From an uncultured Candidatus Saccharibacteria bacterium (lineage in GTDB: Bacteria > Patescibacteriota > Saccharimonadia > CAILAD01 > GCA-016700035), in assembly GCA_964391595.1 (NCBI GenBank), contig CAYMMM010000002.1:16843-80842 (forward strand): a stretch of 64,000 nucleotides of DNA. The letters run 5' to 3'. The notes below the pieces were generated by a model. It did no database searches. It was not told where the DNA came from and saw nothing but the letters and a program-made list of their open reading frames with translations. Below are positions 2,943 to 62,637 of this stretch, in pieces. The first letter of the stretch is position 1; each line of letters starts with the position of its first letter. The position numbers were made by a program, and so were the translations under genes.

Positions 2943-3752
2943 CTATCCAAGCAAACGGAGATATAGATCCAGCAAACGATCCCCCCAGAAATACCCGACA
3001 TACATACCGATAATCAAGAATGGCCCGAAGGCAATCACATCCTTGCGCGTCTTGAGCTTGAGCGCAATGAGCAAAATCCCGACAAACGCACCGATGAAAT
3101 ACGTGGCAAATATCCCTACAACCAGCTGCGACGGTGTCAGCATGAGCCCCATAAGCACCGCCAGACGAATATCGCCGTCCCCGATCCACTTCTCCCCCGA
3201 TCCGTACCACATAAGTGTATAAAAGCCGCCAAAGAGCGCTGCTCCTATGAGTTGAGAAATCGCCAGACTCGACTCGTGATACCCAAACCAACGCACCAGT
3301 AGCCAGACGAGAGCCACGCCAATTGCCGGAAACATGAACTCGTCTGGAAGCTCTAGGTGTAGCCAATCATAGACGAAGGCGGCGATCATCAACGTCGTCA
3401 CGATGACCCAAACGCCGAAGGTGGCAATCGAGCGCAGGTCAGTCGGATTGACAGAGACAAAGAGCCCGATCCAGGCACCTGCAGTCGCCAGCTCAACCAG
3501 CGGATACTGCCAGCTGATGCGCTTGTGACAGGTGCGGCACTTCCCGCGCAAAGCCATAAAGCTCAGCACCGGTATCAGCTCGTACCATGCCAGCTGGCGA
3601 TGGCAGTGGGTGCACTTGCTCCTACCTTGTGAGACCTTCTTGCCATGCGCCATGCGCCAGATCCAGGCATTGAGAAAGCTGCCGATGAGGAGGCCATAGA
3701 TACCGACGAGTACCGAGATAAGAATAAGCGGTGTCTGCATGCCTACCATCAT
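2943..3752 (-). CDS. pilD: Prepilin peptidase / N-methyltransferase PilD (A24 family)
   Basis: Polytopic membrane protein with the N-terminal Zn tetracysteine motif CTHC...CRTC and conserved Asp regions. It sits next to the pilin genes. Confidence 0.85.
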   Translation of the reverse strand: MMVGMQTPLILISVLVGIYGLLIGSFLNAWIWRMAHGKKVSQGRSKCTHCHRQLAWYELIPVLSFMALRGKCRTCHKRISWQYPLVELATAGAWIGLFVSVNPTDLRSIATFGVWVIVTTLMIAAFVYDWLHLELPDEFMFPAIGVALVWLLVRWFGYHESSLAISQLIGAALFGGFYTLMWYGSGEKWIGDGDIRLAVLMGLMLTPSQLVVGIFATYFIGAFVGILLIALKLKTRKDVIAFGPFLIIGMYVGYFWGDRLLDLYLRLLG

Positions 3753-41560: not shown

Positions 41561-42631
41561 GTGCCAACGACTGACTCGTTGGAAAAGCACCTACCAAGGA
41601 GTAAAATGTTCCAGTTCATCCTGTTCATCCTGTTGGTCGTGGCCGCCGTGGTCATGGTCGGCATGGGTCGCAAGACCTTCGCAGAAGGTTCGAGCGACGA
41701 GATGAAGGTCAACTTCCGGGCGTTCAGCCCCATCCCCCTACTCCTGGGCATCCTCATCCTCTTCTTCAGCACGTTCACCACGGTGGACGGTGGCTTCGTC
41801 GGTATCCCGAAAGCTTTCGGGTCGTACGGTACGCCGCTCGGAGAAGGAGCCCACTTCGTCGCCCCCTGGGCAGACGTCGTGGATCTCGAGGTCAGAACCC
41901 AGGAATACACCATGTCATCCAAAAGCTCCGAAGGCAACGTCAGCGGCGACGACTCCGTCTCCGTTACCGCCTCCGACCAGGTGACAATCGGTGTGGATGC
42001 AACCGTGCTCTACCGCCCGAATGCCAAGACAGCCGACAAGCTGATCAAGGACCTCGGCGAGGAGTACGTCGGCAAGATCGTCCGCCCCACCGCTCGTCAG
42101 GTCATCCGAGACGTCGGCACCCAGTACTCGGGTATCGACCTCGTGACCTCAAAGCGTCAGGCGTACGCCACGCAAGTCAAGGAGGAGATCACCAAGAAGG
42201 TGGCCGCCTACGGCATCACCATCGAGGACGTCAAGATCCGTGACATGAGCCTGCCGAAGCCCCTTGAGGAAGCCGTGAACGCCAAGGCCACCGCCGCTCA
42301 GCTCGCTGACCAGAAAATCAACGAGCTCAGGCAGGCCCAGCTGCAGGCCGACATCGACCGAACCAAGGCGCAAGCCACGGCCGACAGCCAGCAGATCGTT
42401 GCGTGTGGCGGTCACCCCGAAAACGTGACCGTCGACGGCCAGACCAAGCAGGTCGTCGTGCCCAATCGTGGCGATCAGTGCGACCAGCGTCAGCTGACAC
42501 CGGAGTTCCTCCAGAGCCAGTACATCCAAGCCCTCAAGGCAGTGGTGGATTCGCCGAACAACTCGACGATCATCCTCCCGATGGATCAGGGGCTGACCCC
42601 CCAGCTGATCCTGCCCAACGGCAAGGGCTAA
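41561..42631 (+). CDS. SPFH/band-7 (prohibitin/HflC-like) membrane protein in a GC-rich island
   Basis: N-terminal TM segment (FILFILLVVAAVVMVGM), an SPFH core and a coiled-coil tail. Codon third positions are almost all G/C, unlike the flanking genes. Confidence 0.8.
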   Translation: MPTTDSLEKHLPRSKMFQFILFILLVVAAVVMVGMGRKTFAEGSSDEMKVNFRAFSPIPLLLGILILFFSTFTTVDGGFVGIPKAFGSYGTPLGEGAHFVAPWADVVDLEVRTQEYTMSSKSSEGNVSGDDSVSVTASDQVTIGVDATVLYRPNAKTADKLIKDLGEEYVGKIVRPTARQVIRDVGTQYSGIDLVTSKRQAYATQVKEEITKKVAAYGITIEDVKIRDMSLPKPLEEAVNAKATAAQLADQKINELRQAQLQADIDRTKAQATADSQQIVACGGHPENVTVDGQTKQVVVPNRGDQCDQRQLTPEFLQSQYIQALKAVVDSPNNSTIILPMDQGLTPQLILPNGKG

Positions 42632-48470: not shown

Positions 48471-49326
48471 CCAAGAGATGCGCTATTAACTCGATACTCA
48501 GATCAGCTGTCATACTGTCCGTATCTCGCTGCGGATTAAACTCAACAAGATCAAGTGCGACTAATTGCTCATACGCCAGCTGACGGGCGATGTAAGCAGC
48601 TTCTCGATATGTCAGGCCGCCGTTGTTCTGAATACCCGTGCCAGGAGCGTAGAGACAATCAACCGCATCGATGTCATAGCTTACATGGACCGGTCTGCCC
48701 GCGATCCATGCTCGAACTTGCCGCATCACCTCTCCGATACCTACGCTTGTGATGTCATCCATCGTGGCATGGCGCACACCTTCGCTCTGTATCCAGTCGA
48801 ACTCAGCCTGATCTATGTCCTTAATCGCCAAGTAAAAAATATCCTTGGCACTCCAGTATGGCCCATGGAAGTGTTCTTGCAGAGCTCCCCCAGTCGCTAT
48901 CCGTACAGGCATACCGTGCAGGTTGTGCGTCAAAGACGTACCAGGCGCTTGGACATCAGGATGAGCATCAATATATACGCACACCGCACCTTCGTGTCGT
49001 TCGCGCGTTGCAAGAAGACTGGACGTCGCCACCGAGTGGTCGCCACCCAAGACAAGCGGAATCGCATCGGATGGCTGCTCAATAATGGCTGCCCGCAAAC
49101 CCAGAAGCCACGGCACTAAGGTCCGAGCGTTTCGAACATTTTCTATTCTGTCGGCACCGACATGTTTTCGATCAGCACCCCACTGCTGAAGCTTGACCGA
49201 CCGCAAACCGGTAGCAAGAACACCTTCGAGGCCTCGATCCAATAATGTAGTTGGCCCATCTTCTGCCCCATCGCTAAAGCTTCCTAGACTTGTACCAGCA
49301 GAAAATATGACGAGGTCTTTTTGCAT
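48427..49326 (-). CDS. Arginase-family hydrolase (arginase/agmatinase/formiminoglutamase)
   Basis: Mn-binding motifs GGDHSVA, YIDAHPD and SYDIDAVD. I chose the ATG at 49326 (MQKDLVIFSAG), not the longer ORF on the track. Confidence 0.8.
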   Translation of the reverse strand: MQKDLVIFSAGTSLGSFSDGAEDGPTTLLDRGLEGVLATGLRSVKLQQWGADRKHVGADRIENVRNARTLVPWLLGLRAAIIEQPSDAIPLVLGGDHSVATSSLLATRERHEGAVCVYIDAHPDVQAPGTSLTHNLHGMPVRIATGGALQEHFHGPYWSAKDIFYLAIKDIDQAEFDWIQSEGVRHATMDDITSVGIGEVMRQVRAWIAGRPVHVSYDIDAVDCLYAPGTGIQNNGGLTYREAAYIARQLAYEQLVALDLVEFNPQRDTDSMTADLSIELIAHLLGVRWDRYTRYLHHA

Positions 49327-58372: not shown

Positions 58373-59125
58373 ATGAACTCATTCTTTACCCCTCGCTCAC
58401 AGCCTTTTATCATCGCTCATCGCGGTGCTTCTGGAGATGCACCAGAAAACACACTCGCAGCCTTCCGCGAAGCCATCAAGCAAAAAGCAGACGCTCTCGA
58501 GCTTGACGTACAGCTCACACGCGACGAGAGGCTCGTCATTATGCATGACCCCACCCTGCAACGTACCACCCGAGGGCGCGGATTCGTCTCGAAGAAGCGC
58601 CTTCACGAGATCCAAAAATACTCCGCGGGAAGTTGGTTTGGTCCAGGACATACAGCGGAGCGCGCACCTAGCTTAGAGGAAGTCTTTGAGGCTTTTGGTG
58701 ACAAGACAAACTATGTGATCGAGCTCAAGTTCTACGAACGTCGGGGACATTTCTTTGCACATAAGGTACTCCAGGCAGTAGACGACCACAAACTCCTTGA
58801 CCACTGTCTTTTCCTGTCATTCAGCCCATTCTTACTCGCACAGCTCAAACGTATAGAGCCAGAAGCTAAAACCTGCCTTGCTTTTGTACCTATAGGTGAT
58901 CTGCTCCCGTCCCGATTGCTCACCAGCTCAGCCGATGTCCTAGCACTTGCTTCACAGTCTGTGAGTAAGTCGTATATGCAGAAGTTACGACGCCGTAATA
59001 AGCCGATCAATATCTGGGCGAAGGCTCACCGCCATGAAGATTTTGACCACGAGCTCGCTGTTGGTGCTGACTTCATAACAACCAATCACCCGCGTGCCCT
59101 GCGTGAGCATCTCCGTGAGAAATAA
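58373..59125 (+). CDS. Glycerophosphodiester phosphodiesterase
   Basis: IIAHRGASGDAPENTLAAFREAI plus the ELDVQLTRDERLVIMHD motif identify the GDPD family. Confidence 0.85.
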   Translation: MNSFFTPRSQPFIIAHRGASGDAPENTLAAFREAIKQKADALELDVQLTRDERLVIMHDPTLQRTTRGRGFVSKKRLHEIQKYSAGSWFGPGHTAERAPSLEEVFEAFGDKTNYVIELKFYERRGHFFAHKVLQAVDDHKLLDHCLFLSFSPFLLAQLKRIEPEAKTCLAFVPIGDLLPSRLLTSSADVLALASQSVSKSYMQKLRRRNKPINIWAKAHRHEDFDHELAVGADFITTNHPRALREHLREK

Positions 59126-60584
59126 GCAAAAACTACCATCGGTATCGTACAAAATTGATCTGGTCACAGATCACAGCCCTACACTGACCAACTATAAGAA
59201 AACAATTTTCATAGCTGGCATCGCACTGCTATTGGCCAGCTTCGTAGGCTTCGGTGGCTATCTGTTTTTCACTAAATACAAGGCGCTACCAAGCACTTCA
59301 AATCTCAATGTTGAGGTGCGCAAGCGGATCACGTATGCCTTTGATGGCGTAAGCGAACAAGAGCAAGCCGATACCACACAACTACTCCGCACCTATGCTA
59401 CCAAGCACAACTACGATCTCTTGGTAGCTAGTGGCACACCTGCTGACATAACTATCGCATCTACGACCGAACCAGATGATATACGACTGACAACAAAGAG
59501 CGAAATCAAACTCACCGACATCACTTCGGGCACGCCGCTTAGTAACAATGCCAAGACTCTGAGCCTACGACTGAAGAAAAGCCTGGATGAAAGTGAGAAA
59601 AAAGCTCTCACCGAAGCCTTTGCGCCAGCATACGCATCGAGCCCGAGAAGCTGGACTTACTTGGCGGTTGGTGACATCATCCCTGCACGCGACGTCTACA
59701 CCTACTCCAAGCGAAACGGCTTTTTATTCCCCTACGCCAAGATCAGCGACACACTTAAAAGCGCAGATCTCACCGTCACAAATGTAGAGACAACCATTGC
59801 CGATGGGCAAGCCAACGGCGAAGGAGCAGGCATGATGGTTTTCACTGCTCCCAGTAAGGCATTTGACGGTCTCGTAGCTTCGGGTATCGACGGGATAAAT
59901 CTCGCGAACAACCACTCGATGAATGGTGGCAGCCAGAAAGTTACCGAGATGCTCACAGGTCTCGATGTTCGCAAGATCGGTCACTTCGGTGTCAGTACCA
60001 CAAATGGTATCAATACCTGGGCTACAACCGTCAATGGCATCAAAGTCATTCACCTGAGCTTTAACACAGTTCCTGGCAGCATTGATCCTACAGCGAGCAC
60101 ACCAGGAGCACGGCGCATTCCACTTAAGCCGTGGGGCAGCTTATCCGAAAGTGACGTAGCCTTTGTGCAAGGTCAAATTAAGGCAGCGAAGCAATCTGCC
60201 GATGTGGTCATACCCTGGTTTCAATGGGGTACCGAATACACACATGATGCAAATGACGAACAGCGCCGTCTCGCCCACGCGGCAATTGATGCTGGTGCCG
60301 AGACAGTAATCGGCACCCACCCGCACTGGACTCAAGGTATCGAGTGGTACAATGGGCACTTCATCGCCTACTCCCTCGGCAACTTCATCTTCGACCAAAA
60401 CTGGAGCGACGAAACTCGTCGGTCTTTCGCAGCGCAGATTACCTTCACCGGGACAAAAGTGACGGGCGTGCAACTCATGCCTGCATATATTGAAAACTGG
60501 GTGCAACCGCGCTTCCTCGCCCCATCAGAAGCACTGTACAAGCAAATTCTCAGTGATGTAGCTGCGCACTCCTGGTGGCAATAA
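59094..60584 (+). CDS. CapA-family metallophosphatase (poly-gamma-glutamate/capsule biosynthesis-like)
   Basis: N-terminal TM segment and calcineurin-like metallophosphoesterase motifs (GDIIPARD; NLANNH; GTHPHWTQGIEWYNGHFIAYSLGNFIFDQ). Confidence 0.8.
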   Translation: MPCVSISVRNKQKLPSVSYKIDLVTDHSPTLTNYKKTIFIAGIALLLASFVGFGGYLFFTKYKALPSTSNLNVEVRKRITYAFDGVSEQEQADTTQLLRTYATKHNYDLLVASGTPADITIASTTEPDDIRLTTKSEIKLTDITSGTPLSNNAKTLSLRLKKSLDESEKKALTEAFAPAYASSPRSWTYLAVGDIIPARDVYTYSKRNGFLFPYAKISDTLKSADLTVTNVETTIADGQANGEGAGMMVFTAPSKAFDGLVASGIDGINLANNHSMNGGSQKVTEMLTGLDVRKIGHFGVSTTNGINTWATTVNGIKVIHLSFNTVPGSIDPTASTPGARRIPLKPWGSLSESDVAFVQGQIKAAKQSADVVIPWFQWGTEYTHDANDEQRRLAHAAIDAGAETVIGTHPHWTQGIEWYNGHFIAYSLGNFIFDQNWSDETRRSFAAQITFTGTKVTGVQLMPAYIENWVQPRFLAPSEALYKQILSDVAAHSWWQ

Positions 60585-60607: not shown

Positions 60608-60636
60608 TTGAAATTCTTACGCTAATCTGCTAGAAT
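60608..60636 (+). promoter_or_regulatory. Putative promoter: TTGAAA, 17-nt spacer, TAGAAT, with the spacer motif GCTAATCTGC
   Basis: Read directly from the sequence. It lies ~20-30 nt upstream of the 60655/60664 start codons. A leader hairpin GTCACT-cgata-GTGAC is at 60644-60659. Confidence 0.45.
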
Positions 60637-60654
60637 AGTACCTGTCACTCGATA

Positions 60655-61254
60655 GTGACGACTATGAACCACACAATTCGACCAAAAACAAAATTCGCTC
60701 AATATCTGAAAGCATTCAAGCGATCAGAGGATAACGCATTGATTGCAGTAGCCGTGATTTCATCGGCTCTTGCAGTGAGTGCGCTTTTTATTCCTCAGAC
60801 GTACCAACAAGCATCTGCTACTACCGAGCTTGATCTCGAAACAGCCCACACGCTCTGTCTGCAGGCCAATTCTGCCTCGGAGTGCGACGCCCTTGTACAA
60901 CGCATAGCTGCCACCAAGCCCAAGCCAATTGCCGGTGACCCGATGCGGCCTTATAAGCCCTTCTCAAACTGTCGCGATGCGGTCGATTATATCTTCAATG
61001 ACCGCACAGATTACGCACGTGCTATCGAGGTCGTATATCGAGAGTCGACCAACAACCCAAACGCTCGTCGCCCAGGAAGCCAATACGCTGGTTGTGCTCA
61101 GCTCTCGACTACCCTTCAAGCCACCTTCTTGCGCGGCCCATGGAACGACGCCTACTATAACGTACTCGCCCTTCGAGATGCGGTCGACAACCCTCGTTGG
61201 GGCTGGTGCCACTGGGATCTGGTAAATTACTGTGGCGCAGGTGGCGAGTTCTAA
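60655..61254 (+). CDS. Secreted lysozyme-like/SLT-like protein (putative lytic transglycosylase)
   Basis: N-terminal TM/signal anchor (LIAVAVISSALAVSALFI). The motif block YRESTNNPNARRPGSQYAGCAQLS resembles the SLT consensus ES..NP.A...GA.GLMQ. The start may instead be the ATG at 60664. Confidence 0.45.
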   Translation: MTTMNHTIRPKTKFAQYLKAFKRSEDNALIAVAVISSALAVSALFIPQTYQQASATTELDLETAHTLCLQANSASECDALVQRIAATKPKPIAGDPMRPYKPFSNCRDAVDYIFNDRTDYARAIEVVYRESTNNPNARRPGSQYAGCAQLSTTLQATFLRGPWNDAYYNVLALRDAVDNPRWGWCHWDLVNYCGAGGEF

Positions 61255-61309
61255 TGAATACACTCCAGTCAGCCCGTATGAAGCATGGTCCGTAACACTA
61301 TCGAAACTA

Positions 61310-61338
61310 TTGCTTTTTTATTGATAATCTGCTAAAAT
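61310..61338 (+). promoter_or_regulatory. Promoter-like element: TTGCTT, 17-nt spacer, TAAAAT, with the same spacer motif GATAATCTGC
   Basis: 14 of 16 nt match 60621-60636. It lies ~190 nt upstream of the RlpA-like ATG. Confidence 0.35.
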
Positions 61339-61528
61339 AAAGAAGACCGTCAAACCAGTCTGAATCCCTCAGGGAGTACACTCTACATAAGAGACATACG
61401 CAAACCTGAGAGACTGAGACCTTGAGCTTAGTCACGTTCTAGAATCATTCGAGACACACTCGAGACGTGGTAAGGATAGCTCACAAGCTGACGATCACCC
61501 AAGAAGGGAGCGCAACCCCCGCGCCCCT

Positions 61529-62134
61529 GTGTACCTGGAAGGCAAGAACATGCATGCACCTCGAAAGAGGCCCCGAAGTCCGAAGCTGGCCGCGCTGCTC
61601 ATCATCGCAGCAATCGCTGTCTTTGGCTCGGCCTGCGACTACAACCCCATCCTCGGCTTCGCGCCGAGCGATCTGCAGGCCTTCAACGCCCTACACGGCA
61701 CCAACGTCACGATGGAGGATGCCAACGCCGCCTGTGCGCAACTGAACGCCGCTGGTGACCCGACCAAGTGCCAGAAGACGGTCGACTACCTGAACGGCCT
61801 CAAGCTGTCGCAGGCCCGCAAGAAGCCGGTGCCACCGACGGTCGCGGCCGTCAGCTGGTATGACCCGGCTGGGCTCGGTGGCATGTGTGCCTCAGGGCCC
61901 TGCCCGCCGAACAACAGCTTCTCGTGCGCGCACAAGACCGCGCAATTCGGGACGCTGCTCAGACTGACCAAGAACGGGCGATCCATCGTCTGCACGGTCG
62001 TCGACAGAGGGCCGTACATCTCAGGCCGTGCGGTGGACCTCTTCCCTGCGCCCGCAGAAGCGCTGGGCCTGAAGGGGCCAACAAGAAACTCAGGACCCGG
62101 TGTCTTGAGTGGCGTCACCATCGCCATGGCCTAG
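61529..62134 (+). CDS. RlpA-like double-psi beta-barrel (DPBB) lipoprotein in a GC-rich island
   Basis: Signal peptide with a lipobox-like VFGSAC. The DPBB signature runs VSWYDPAGLGGMCASGP...AHKTAQFGTLLRLTKNGRSIVCTVVDRGPYISGRAVDLFPAPAEALGL. Codon third positions are strongly G/C-biased. Confidence 0.7.
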   Translation: MYLEGKNMHAPRKRPRSPKLAALLIIAAIAVFGSACDYNPILGFAPSDLQAFNALHGTNVTMEDANAACAQLNAAGDPTKCQKTVDYLNGLKLSQARKKPVPPTVAAVSWYDPAGLGGMCASGPCPPNNSFSCAHKTAQFGTLLRLTKNGRSIVCTVVDRGPYISGRAVDLFPAPAEALGLKGPTRNSGPGVLSGVTIAMA

Positions 62135-62175
62135 TCGCCACACGCGACACACACTCATGGCGGGATCCACGAGAA

Positions 62176-62216
62176 GGGTGGGAGGACTTCGGTCTTCCCA
62201 CCCTCTTCTTTTCTTT
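62176..62216 (+). terminator. Strong intrinsic terminator: 13-bp GC-rich stem, GNRA-like loop ttcg, then a T-tract
   Basis: GGGTGGGAGGAC (62176-62187) pairs with GTCTTCCCACCC (62192-62203), followed by TCTTCTTTTCTTT. The msrB stop codon (62215-62217) overlaps the T-tract. Confidence 0.7.
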
Positions 62217-62637
62217 ATTCTGATTTTTTCTTCAGATCCAGGCTTGCTGAATTGATACAAAATCTCTGGCCGGTGGTCTCAGTTGGGCCATCTTCAAACA
62301 TGTGCCCGAGATGAGCGCCGCAGCGGCTACAGACCACTTCCGTGCGAGTCATGCCATGACTCTCATCTGATCGCATCTCTACACTACCCGGAACCGCGCG
62401 GTCGAAGCTTGGCCATCCAGAACCTGATTCAAACTTATGCTCACTATCAAAAAGCACTTGCCCGCATACTTTGCACGTGTACGTCCCGTCAGCATGTTCG
62501 TCCCAATACTTGCCGGTAAATGGTGCCTCGGTGCCGGCATTTTGCGTAACCTCATACTCGTGCTCACTCAACCGAGCCTTGAGCTCTTCATCGCTTGGCT
62601 TCTTGAAATCACTCATTTCTTCAATTCCTCCACCCAA
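62215..62637 (-). CDS. msrB: Peptide methionine-(R)-S-oxide reductase MsrB
   Basis: Zn-binding CxxC pairs (CKVCGQ; CSRCGAHLGHMF) and the catalytic RCGAHLGH motif. Confidence 0.9.
   Translation of the reverse strand: MGGGIEEMSDFKKPSDEELKARLSEHEYEVTQNAGTEAPFTGKYWDEHADGTYTCKVCGQVLFDSEHKFESGSGWPSFDRAVPGSVEMRSDESHGMTRTEVVCSRCGAHLGHMFEDGPTETTGQRFCINSASLDLKKKSE

Follow-up and report, generated by a model that had tools for sequence, protein, structure and literature searches.

At positions 60608-62216 of the 64,000-nucleotide (nt) stretch of Candidatus Saccharibacteria DNA analyzed here (the window), two open reading frames (ORFs) lie on the plus strand, ORF1 followed by ORF2 (gene 2), and gene 2 is preceded by a leader of about 205 nt that runs from its promoter to its start codon (61345-61549). 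Our best explanation of the whole, held with moderate confidence, is that two genes, flanked by PGA_cap and msrB, form a locus for cell-wall remodelling, in which a conserved ORF1 is accompanied by a gene-2 slot that is gated by the leader RNA and filled with an exchangeable muralytic cassette. Judged from sequence comparison, the leader is a strongly supported candidate for a conserved structured RNA that matches no Rfam family, and it probably acts as a riboswitch-like regulator of translation. The original prediction for this region described two adjacent secreted cell-wall genes with a shared promoter-proximal motif, the second gene being foreign in composition and possibly captured from the host. 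Its observations on the sequence were largely correct, including the adjacency of the two ORFs on the plus strand, and its interpretation was partly supported. The evidence also supports an epibiont-type Saccharibacterium as the organism.

A candidate regulatory RNA in the gene-2 leader

Relatives of the locus were taken from contigs with ORF1 homologues and from contigs found by scanning collections for the leader DNA pattern; the genome-collection matches to this pattern were all Candidatus Saccharibacteria. In sliding comparisons of DNA identity between the window and two sister loci (L011 and L004), the leader (88-100%) was more conserved than the flanking genes (75-90%), and the gene-2 cassette fell to 30-55%. 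Folding of nine distinct leaders with RNAalifold gave a core of six helices and 37 pairs on the plus strand (61345-61497). Helix P1 pairs 61346-61352 with 61489-61495 (GUUGUCA/UGACGAC) and closes a multi-helix junction with two arms: P2-P4 form the 5' arm, tipped by a hairpin whose length varies, and P5-P6 together with a variable insert form the 3' arm. The long unpaired stretches that join the helices, CCAGUCUGAA, UGAGACCUU, GCUUA and GUGGUAAGGAUAGC, were invariant.

The consensus fold was backed by covariation. In the alignment of nine leaders, 96.7% of the cells were paired, compared with 30-45% when the 3' partners were slid by 1-3 columns, and 16 pairs showed compensatory double changes, compared with 1-2 in the slid controls. 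With the L028 leader added, 18 of the 37 pairs were compensatory, including all 7 of P1, and 96.5% of the cells were paired (30-46% in the slid controls); the observed values were attained in 0 of 500 shuffles. The minimum free energy structure of the window leader, folded as a single sequence, recovered the consensus fold (z -2.2). A covariance model of the leader (R1) scored 132 bits at the window and 125 bits at L028, which lay outside the model and in which P1 was fully compensated. Searches with the model returned a single copy at each locus, invariably ahead of gene 2, and the rest of the window contained no other.

The leader starts about 7 nt past the -10 box of gene 2. With this location in the 5' untranslated region (5'UTR) and a conserved secondary structure supported by covariation, 61345-61549 has the features by which riboswitch candidates are recognized. 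Rfam 15 gave no gathering-score match in the 64-kb window, ydaO-yuaA (RF00379) included, and searches with the leader alone (a 231-nt query from the window, and L017) returned only spurious Rfam matches at E<=10. Strict-pattern scans found the leader in three GTDB species representatives and two metagenome contigs, and in no viral contig. The leader was not found at the actinobacterial homologue loci L025-L027, and those examined had no ydaO element.

Between the RNA core and the Shine-Dalgarno sequence (SD) lies a hairpin with a C-rich loop (AACCCCC; 61505-61528, plus strand), presumed to be part of the expression platform. It was found in all eight leader tails folded separately, with unrelated stem sequences and a retained C-run loop. 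The SD itself, GGAAGG (61537-61542, plus strand), is preceded by a conserved UACCU; the ACCT and the G of the SD were invariant in the alignment. No plus-strand terminator-like site was found between the leader core and gene 2, and the leader is therefore expected to be co-transcribed with the gene. Two further ideas were rejected. Conservation of the leader through a small ORF does not agree with changes that are compensatory between paired positions; a GTG-initiated "VVRIAHKL" frame runs into gene 2 in L008 and L023 and is out of the gene-2 frame in the window. A pseudoknot between the C-run loop and a 5' "CAGGGAG" was dismissed because the G-run reads CAAAGAG in three sequences.

Variable catalytic domains in gene 2

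The C-terminal domain of gene 2, of a glycan-cleaving type, is exchanged between species. It is DPBB_1 (double-psi beta-barrel, DPBB) in the window, an Rpf-type Transglycosylas domain (PF06737) in L004 and L006/L010/L024, and a divergent Rpf-like domain with sub-threshold PF06737 matches in L008, L020, L023 and L028. In L011/L013/L015 and L018 it resembles the C-terminal domain of aggregation-promoting factor (Apf; NF052397, 83 bits in L011), and in L017 and P0042 it is of the ORF1 type. All gene-2 alleles have a signal peptide and a lipobox Cys, and five in an alignment of ten have a two-Cys module. What is conserved around the cassette is the promoter, the leader, the signal peptide with its lipobox and the terminator. 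Since the L017 and P0042 alleles join an ORF1-type domain to the gene-2 N-terminus, ORF1 and gene 2 have modules in common.

The sliding identity placed the variable cassette at 61736-62155 (plus strand). In the comparison with L011, identity became no higher than between unrelated sequences at about 61590, and in that with L004 at about 61736; it stayed this low until about 62155. Homology resumed about 20 nt past the gene-2 stop codon, at an intrinsic terminator between the convergent ORF2 and msrB (62175-62214, plus strand), which consists of a 13-bp stem with a UUCG loop and a U-rich tail. The 13-bp-stem terminator proposed 3' of ORF2 was thus borne out: the stem (62175-62204, 13 pairs, followed by a T-run) folded at -28.1 kcal/mol (z -4.9), and a homologous stem was found in L004 and L011, in keeping with its conservation in close relatives. 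Contigs that share one ORF1 protein carry the same gene-2 allele, so that turnover of the cassette appears to take place between species and not within populations.

Two alleles bear marks of their history or state. The L011 3'UTR (1921-1950) keeps "ACATCTGATCCCAGGCGGGATCC", which corresponds to the final codons of the Rpf allele, stop codon included (L004 6455-6485); on sequence grounds this suggests the scar of an earlier Rpf cassette that was replaced. In L018 (3850-4512) the Apf-C-type allele looks frameshifted in its catalytic domain, the motif stopping after GACGIPQALPCS in a 220-amino-acid (aa) ORF with an unrelated tail, which could be a pseudogene or an assembly error.

Composition and source of the cassette

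The GC content at third codon positions (GC3) was 0.80 in ORF2, compared with 0.53 ± 0.07 for 57 ORFs of the window, and second positions were raised as well (GC2 0.52). ORF1 had a GC3 of 0.53, equal to the window mean, which agrees with the host-like composition ascribed to it. The GC3 bias attributed to ORF2 therefore stood. Its extension into the leader from 61440 did not, as the fine GC profile rose at about 61480-61500, at the 3' end of the RNA core, and fell at about 62200. All gene-2 alleles were GC-rich (GC 0.56-0.64, GC3 0.57-0.80; 0.57-0.77 for the alleles of relatives), compared with a GC3 of 0.41-0.53 in the neighbouring ORF1 homologues and a GC of 0.47-0.54 for the loci. Because every allele is GC-rich, the anomaly belongs to the slot and not to this particular DPBB gene. 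In L017, the gene-2 allele with an ORF1-type domain had a GC3 of 0.75, compared with 0.45 for the adjacent ORF1 homologue.

Actinomycetota is the phylum of the known hosts of Saccharibacteria. Over 115 aa, a stretch that begins at the lipobox Cys and reaches the C-terminus, the Rpf allele of L006 shared 70% identity with P0218, a protein assigned by NCBI to a metagenome-assembled genome of Acidimicrobiales, with a locus GC of 0.69 and a gene GC3 of 0.84. Rpf has been described as confined to Actinobacteria (PMC1084345). Taken together, the identity, the donor-like GC and this confinement support import of the L006 Rpf cassette from a high-GC actinomycetote. The supported actinobacterial source applies to this Rpf-type allele of a sister species and not to the DPBB allele; most simply, the exchanged blocks come from high-GC donors. 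The Rpf lipoprotein gene is flanked by tRNA genes on the Acidimicrobiales-type contigs L025 (3625-4582; P0218) and L026 (3533-4545), and about 285 nt of untranslated sequence upstream of it matched neither R1 nor the ydaO riboswitch.

For the DPBB allele, a word-indexed search of 5.8 billion clusters returned the ORF2 protein itself only. An exhaustive HMMER search of 1.84 billion representatives yielded 13,904 DPBB proteins, with Truepera, Deinococcus and Coriobacteriia among the organisms named. A tblastn search of phages and plasmids found cyanophage and alpha-proteobacterial RlpA-like genes with 35-47% identity to the DPBB domain. Of the proposal that an RlpA-like gene was captured from the host, the aberrant composition is confirmed, but all alleles are GC-rich and no close DPBB relative was found; host capture of the DPBB domain is unproven.

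A single other gene in the window is as GC3-rich as ORF2, namely an SPFH/Band 7 gene on the plus strand (41561-42631; 356 aa, PF01145, E 1.4e-30, GC3 0.82). Its composition may point to a further import from a high-GC source, or to a cause of the GC3 bias other than horizontal gene transfer. Raised values were also seen in a type IV prepilin peptidase gene on the minus strand (2943-3752; GC3 0.68) and in a 184-aa ORF without a Pfam match on the plus strand (48565-49119; GC3 0.65).

Proteins encoded at the locus

The evidence supports both products as exported proteins whose fold is of a type that cleaves glycan strands. ORF2 (61550-62134, plus strand; GC 0.64) is a predicted lipoprotein of 194 aa, with a signal peptide and lipobox Cys29, a two-Cys module at about aa 38-85 and DPBB_1 at about aa 101-176. 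The Pfam search confirmed the DPBB_1 assignment above its gathering score (PF03330; 37.1 bits, cut-off 28.8, E 3.7e-9, aa 108-182 of the 201-aa ORF), and no other Pfam family was found at E<=1. ORF2 also matched the solved DPBB protein PA4485 (4avr; E 8e-9); its VDRGPY aligns with NDRGPF of PA4485, so that the DRGP Asp, which is catalytic in RlpA, is retained. The signal peptide ends in a lipobox-like ...FGSAC. The lipobox Cys (C29) was invariant across ten aligned gene-2 alleles and also present in the L028 allele, and the residues ahead of it were small (SAC, VAC, SSC, TAC); the residue at -3 in the window ORF2 is a non-canonical G.

The description of ORF2 as an RlpA-like DPBB lipoprotein holds for the domain, the lipobox signal and the DRGP Asp, features shared with the RlpA/PA4485-type DPBB lytic transglycosylases. 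It does not hold for membership of the RlpA family itself: ORF2 scored below the NCBIfam cut-offs (40 versus 82.15 bits for TIGR00413, and 35.6 versus 201 for the equivalog NF007953), and no SPOR domain was found in it. A further difference from RlpA is that a Cys-rich sequence, GLGGMCASGPCPPNNSFSC, replaces the FHGRxTAxGExYD segment usually found; among the proteins retrieved, the pattern occurred in one other (P0043).

The two-Cys module, of about 50 aa (FNALHGxxxSxExAxxACxxxxxxxGxxxC), follows the lipobox in the window (61550-61834), P0036, P0042, P0208, L011 and L018, and different catalytic domains sit C-terminal to it among the gene-2 alleles. ORF1 has a similarly placed two-Cys linker. 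Treating ORF1 and ORF2 as paralogues was rejected, since BLASTP gave only a weak match (E 0.01) that lies within this linker.

ORF1 (60664-61254, plus strand), the conserved member of the gene pair, is a membrane-anchored protein with the two-Cys linker and a C-terminal domain of lysozyme-like/lytic-transglycosylase fold. Its family comprises proteins of about 190 aa in 30 clusters, and none of the 30 members listed matched Pfam. Conservation is very high over the C-terminal ~100 aa, which contain an invariant RES, four invariant Cys and the motif WGWCHWDxVNYC. AlphaFold gave a confident model of this domain, and the domain has a lysozyme-like fold with a conserved, putatively catalytic Glu. 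The label "SLT-like" given to ORF1 is therefore apt for the fold and not for the family: no Pfam family was matched at E<=1, including SLT (PF01464) and Transglycosylas (PF06737), and the match to NF052397 was weak (16.5 bits, cut-off 40). ORF1 differs in this respect from the family-1 lytic transglycosylases (Slt70, MltC/E/F, EtgA, phiKZ gp144) and Rpf, and also in its four invariant Cys, its WGWCHWDxVNYC motif and the lack of a PDB match by sequence profile; a profile search of the PDB with the ORF1 family returned spurious SMC matches only, which were discarded.

Promoters and locus layout

The two near-identical 16-mers that the original prediction had noted were located precisely at 60621-60636 and 61323-61338. 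They are 14/16 identical, and exact copies of AATCTGCTARAAT in the window were confined to these two sites. The -10 boxes described in the original prediction are present at the 3' ends of the 16-mers. A -35 element precedes each at a spacing of 17 nt, and both sites have the form expected of predicted sigma-70-type extended -10 promoters (TGn directly before TAnAAT, a -35 TTG spaced by 17 nt, and a gene downstream). For ORF1 (60608-60636, plus strand), the elements are TTGAAA and the extended -10 TGCTAGAAT, with 10/12 matches plus the TG in a promoter scan; for gene 2 (61310-61338, plus strand), they are TTGCTT and TGCTAAAAT.

The generic extended -10, TGnTAnAAT, accounts for 9 of the 13 bases common to both sites. 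It occurs eight times in the window, and five of these copies lie in the intergenic 12%, each 10-191 nt 5' of a gene on the same strand; besides the promoters of ORF1 and gene 2, it is present between genes as TGCTATAAT (28041, 41265) and as TGGTAAAAT (11634). TGnTAnAAT is the usual predicted form of strong promoter in this genome. With up to two mismatches allowed, the motif was found four times in the window against 3.2 expected, which is chance frequency. In eight related loci, TTGA and TnTGCTAnAAT were invariant in the ORF1 promoter (TTGA-N-TnTGCTAnAAT), and the "AATC" 5' of ORF1 was replaced by GTTA, TTTA or CTTA. In the gene-2 promoter, compared across nine loci, the invariant bases were the TTG of the -35, the TG extension, and TA together with the last T in the -10 box, which is of the TGTTAATCT type in a more distant clade. 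Because nothing except promoter elements is conserved, a shared operator is not supported, and the proposed co-regulation through an operator or special sigma-factor contact reduces to a resemblance between ordinary extended -10 promoters.

The 5' neighbour of ORF1 is a PGA_cap gene (59094-60584), and an msrB/SelR gene on the minus strand (62215-62637) is convergent with ORF2. The gene order in relatives is GDPD, PGA_cap, ORF1, gene 2, msrB; PGA_cap is absent in some, and L008 and L018 have no msrB at the locus. The lengths of 199 and 201 aa first given for the two proteins need revision. For ORF1, the listed frame opens at GTG 60655 (199 aa); the homologues start with MNHT..., which makes ATG 60664 (196 aa) the likely start. 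ORF2 is listed from GTG 61529 (201 aa) and likely starts at ATG 61550 (194 aa); of its products, the 194-aa form is the only one recorded in public assemblies, on six contigs.

The ORF1 5'UTR consists almost wholly of a 6-bp hairpin read from the sequence, GTCACT-CGAT-AGTGAC (60644-60659, plus strand), 4 nt 5' of ATG 60664, and has no recognisable Shine-Dalgarno sequence. The stem is kept in relatives by compensatory changes (GTCGT/ACGAC, GTCGC/GCGAC), and the hairpin may be a translational or stability element.

Discussion

In the mechanism we propose, the gene-2 promoter would start a transcript whose first ~150 nt fold into the multi-helix RNA, followed by the C-loop hairpin and the SD. The leader would act in cis as a riboswitch-type sensor that gates translation initiation of the downstream muralytic lipoprotein, and this protein would cut peptidoglycan glycan strands at the epibiont surface, in the epibiont's own wall or in that of an actinobacterial host. 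ORF1 would be expressed from its ordinary extended -10 promoter. In this scheme we infer the transcription start, the sensing of a ligand, the direction of regulation, the enzymatic activity, the target wall and the DPBB donor. The sequence comparison itself establishes the promoter sequences, the fold of the leader with its covariation, which domains are present, where the cassette begins and ends, the pattern of GC, and the 70% identity between one allele and an Acidimicrobiales protein. As the product varies and the leader is nearly invariant, autoregulation by the encoded enzyme is argued against, and a signal independent of the cassette is favoured.

Long structured leaders directly before secreted muralytic genes are known from other bacteria. 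Riboswitches for cyclic di-AMP (c-di-AMP) precede rpfA and cell-wall peptidase genes in Actinobacteria, and the ydaO-yuaA type resembles the gene-2 leader in this placement (PMC10117811, PMC9960051). The proteins encoded behind ydaO-like leaders in Actinobacteria and Firmicutes are of Rpf, DPBB/3D, SLT or peptidase type, and both kinds of leader probably act in cis on expression. The gene-2 leader differs from ydaO-yuaA in having no match to RF00379 and no pseudo-twofold symmetry by eye. The lysM-TM7, lysM-Actino, lysM-Prevotella and M23 motifs are candidate cis-regulatory RNAs (Weinberg et al, 2017; PMC5737381), of which lysM-TM7 is specific to TM7/Saccharibacteria and lies in TM7 5'UTRs. They share with the leader a position in the 5'UTRs of cell-wall-degrading genes, and they showed no c-di-AMP binding (PMC5737381). 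Unlike the genes behind the lysM motifs, those behind the leader have no LysM domain; lysM-TM7 was set apart from the leader by the Rfam scan only. Non-orthologous displacement of domains has been described for Rpf/Sps (Ravagnani et al, 2005; PMC1084345), where unrelated muralytic domains, lysozyme-like Rpf and DPBB-type, likewise swap on a shared N-terminal architecture. That displacement occurs between phyla and at different loci, whereas the slot described here is one syntenic locus in related species of Saccharibacteria and, behind a single conserved leader RNA, accommodates five or more types of domain.

Several observations weigh against our explanation. The leader is known from this one locus only, which is unusual for a metabolite riboswitch and fits a binding site for a protein or small RNA. 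In L017, L018, L020 and L023, a CUCC just 3' of P1 is complementary to the SD and could pair with it, but such pairing is not evident in the window. The ten leaders are kin from one narrow clade, so that the shuffle statistics overstate their independence; the slid-partner control is unaffected by this kinship. On the side of the cassette, the best identity to the DPBB allele among the HMMER matches was 44-51% over about 75 aa, the AF2 model of ORF2, from a three-row alignment, was unusable (predicted local distance difference test score 40), and the native-looking SPFH gene, with its GC3 of 0.82, means that high GC3 is no proof of actinobacterial origin.

These points bear on the rival explanations. 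The leader could be a real RNA without being a small-molecule riboswitch, serving instead as a protein or small-RNA site, a thermometer, a stability element or an independent small RNA. We regard this as possible but somewhat unlikely. Its single-copy, locus-specific occurrence would fit, as would the lack of a clear ligand-dependent alternative pairing in the window and the failure of the related lysM and M23 motifs to bind c-di-AMP in vitro (PMC5737381), and we also list here the co-transcription implied by the absence of a plus-strand terminator-like site before gene 2. The architecture of ~150 nt with six helices and invariant single-stranded junctions is, however, typical of ligand-binding aptamers, the leader begins as close to the -10 box as riboswitches do, and the varying product excludes simple autoregulation by the encoded enzyme. 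That ORF2 is a housekeeping RlpA, a septal lytic transglycosylase for the cell's own division without bearing on a host, is unlikely. The DPBB_1 domain with its DRGP Asp and the lipoprotein signal are those of RlpA, and Saccharibacteria possess a peptidoglycan of their own, but the scores below TIGR00413 and NF007953 and the missing SPOR domain argue otherwise. Moreover, sister species have Rpf- or Apf-type domains at this position instead of a DPBB gene, which means that ORF2 is not a conserved orthologue. The slot as a whole may nevertheless serve to remodel the cell's own wall.

Selection offers another account of the composition: gene 2 might be GC-rich because of codons chosen for expression, because of the structure or stability of its mRNA, or because the secreted product is rich in Ala, Gly and Pro, and not through acquisition. 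This would explain why GC-richness is common to every allele and extends to the conserved 5' part (expression platform and signal peptide) and the terminator, why GC2 is raised in ORF2, and why the unrelated SPFH gene is equally GC3-rich. We nevertheless consider it quite unlikely, because the alleles are non-homologous domains, one of them closely resembles, from lipobox to C-terminus, a protein of a 69%-GC Acidimicrobiales locus and belongs to the Rpf type described as confined to Actinobacteria (PMC1084345), and the adjacent ORF1, a secreted muralytic protein counted here as paralogous, has ordinary GC3. The L017 allele, GC3-rich with the same type of domain as its ordinary ORF1 neighbour, points the same way. 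Very improbable is the model of the original prediction, in which AATCTGCTA[AG]AAT serves both genes as an operator, or as a contact for a special sigma factor, and the DPBB gene is a recent capture from the host. It draws on the near-identity of the two 16-mers, their status as the sole exact copies in 64 kb and the GC3 outlier position of ORF2. Against it, the common part is a general extended -10 with other intergenic copies, the "AATC" is unconserved 5' of either gene in more distant relatives, the mismatch-tolerant count is at chance, the non-homologous alleles of sister species are GC-rich too, and a close DPBB relative was found in no lineage sampled. What had been flagged as a shared operator is ordinary promoter similarity, and the leader RNA and the cassette slot are new relative to that prediction.

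Our explanation of an RNA-gated slot with an exchangeable cassette can be carried further. The leader might represent a new riboswitch class, confined to Saccharibacteria/Patescibacteria, that senses a second messenger or a metabolite derived from the cell wall or the host and times a muralytic lipoprotein at the epibiont-host interface, with the cassette repeatedly re-stocked from actinobacterial hosts; we put this forward as a speculation of doubtful standing. If it is true, a single conserved RNA sensor would control what amounts to a host-range or arms-race module. Lytic transglycosylases are among the factors proposed to compromise the host envelope in Patescibacteria (PMC11665869), and both gene regulation in Patescibacteria and the way in which walls are breached or remodelled at host contact are open questions. 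The locus exemplifies, at a single syntenic position, non-orthologous displacement among Rpf, DPBB and other glycan-cleaving domains, and the 70% identity together with the donor-like GC is sequence evidence for the import of wall-cleaving enzymes by an epibiont from the phylum of its hosts. A candidate regulatory RNA before a muralytic effector gives a handle on the signal that these reduced cells sense, and may possibly serve as a native switch for genetic tools.

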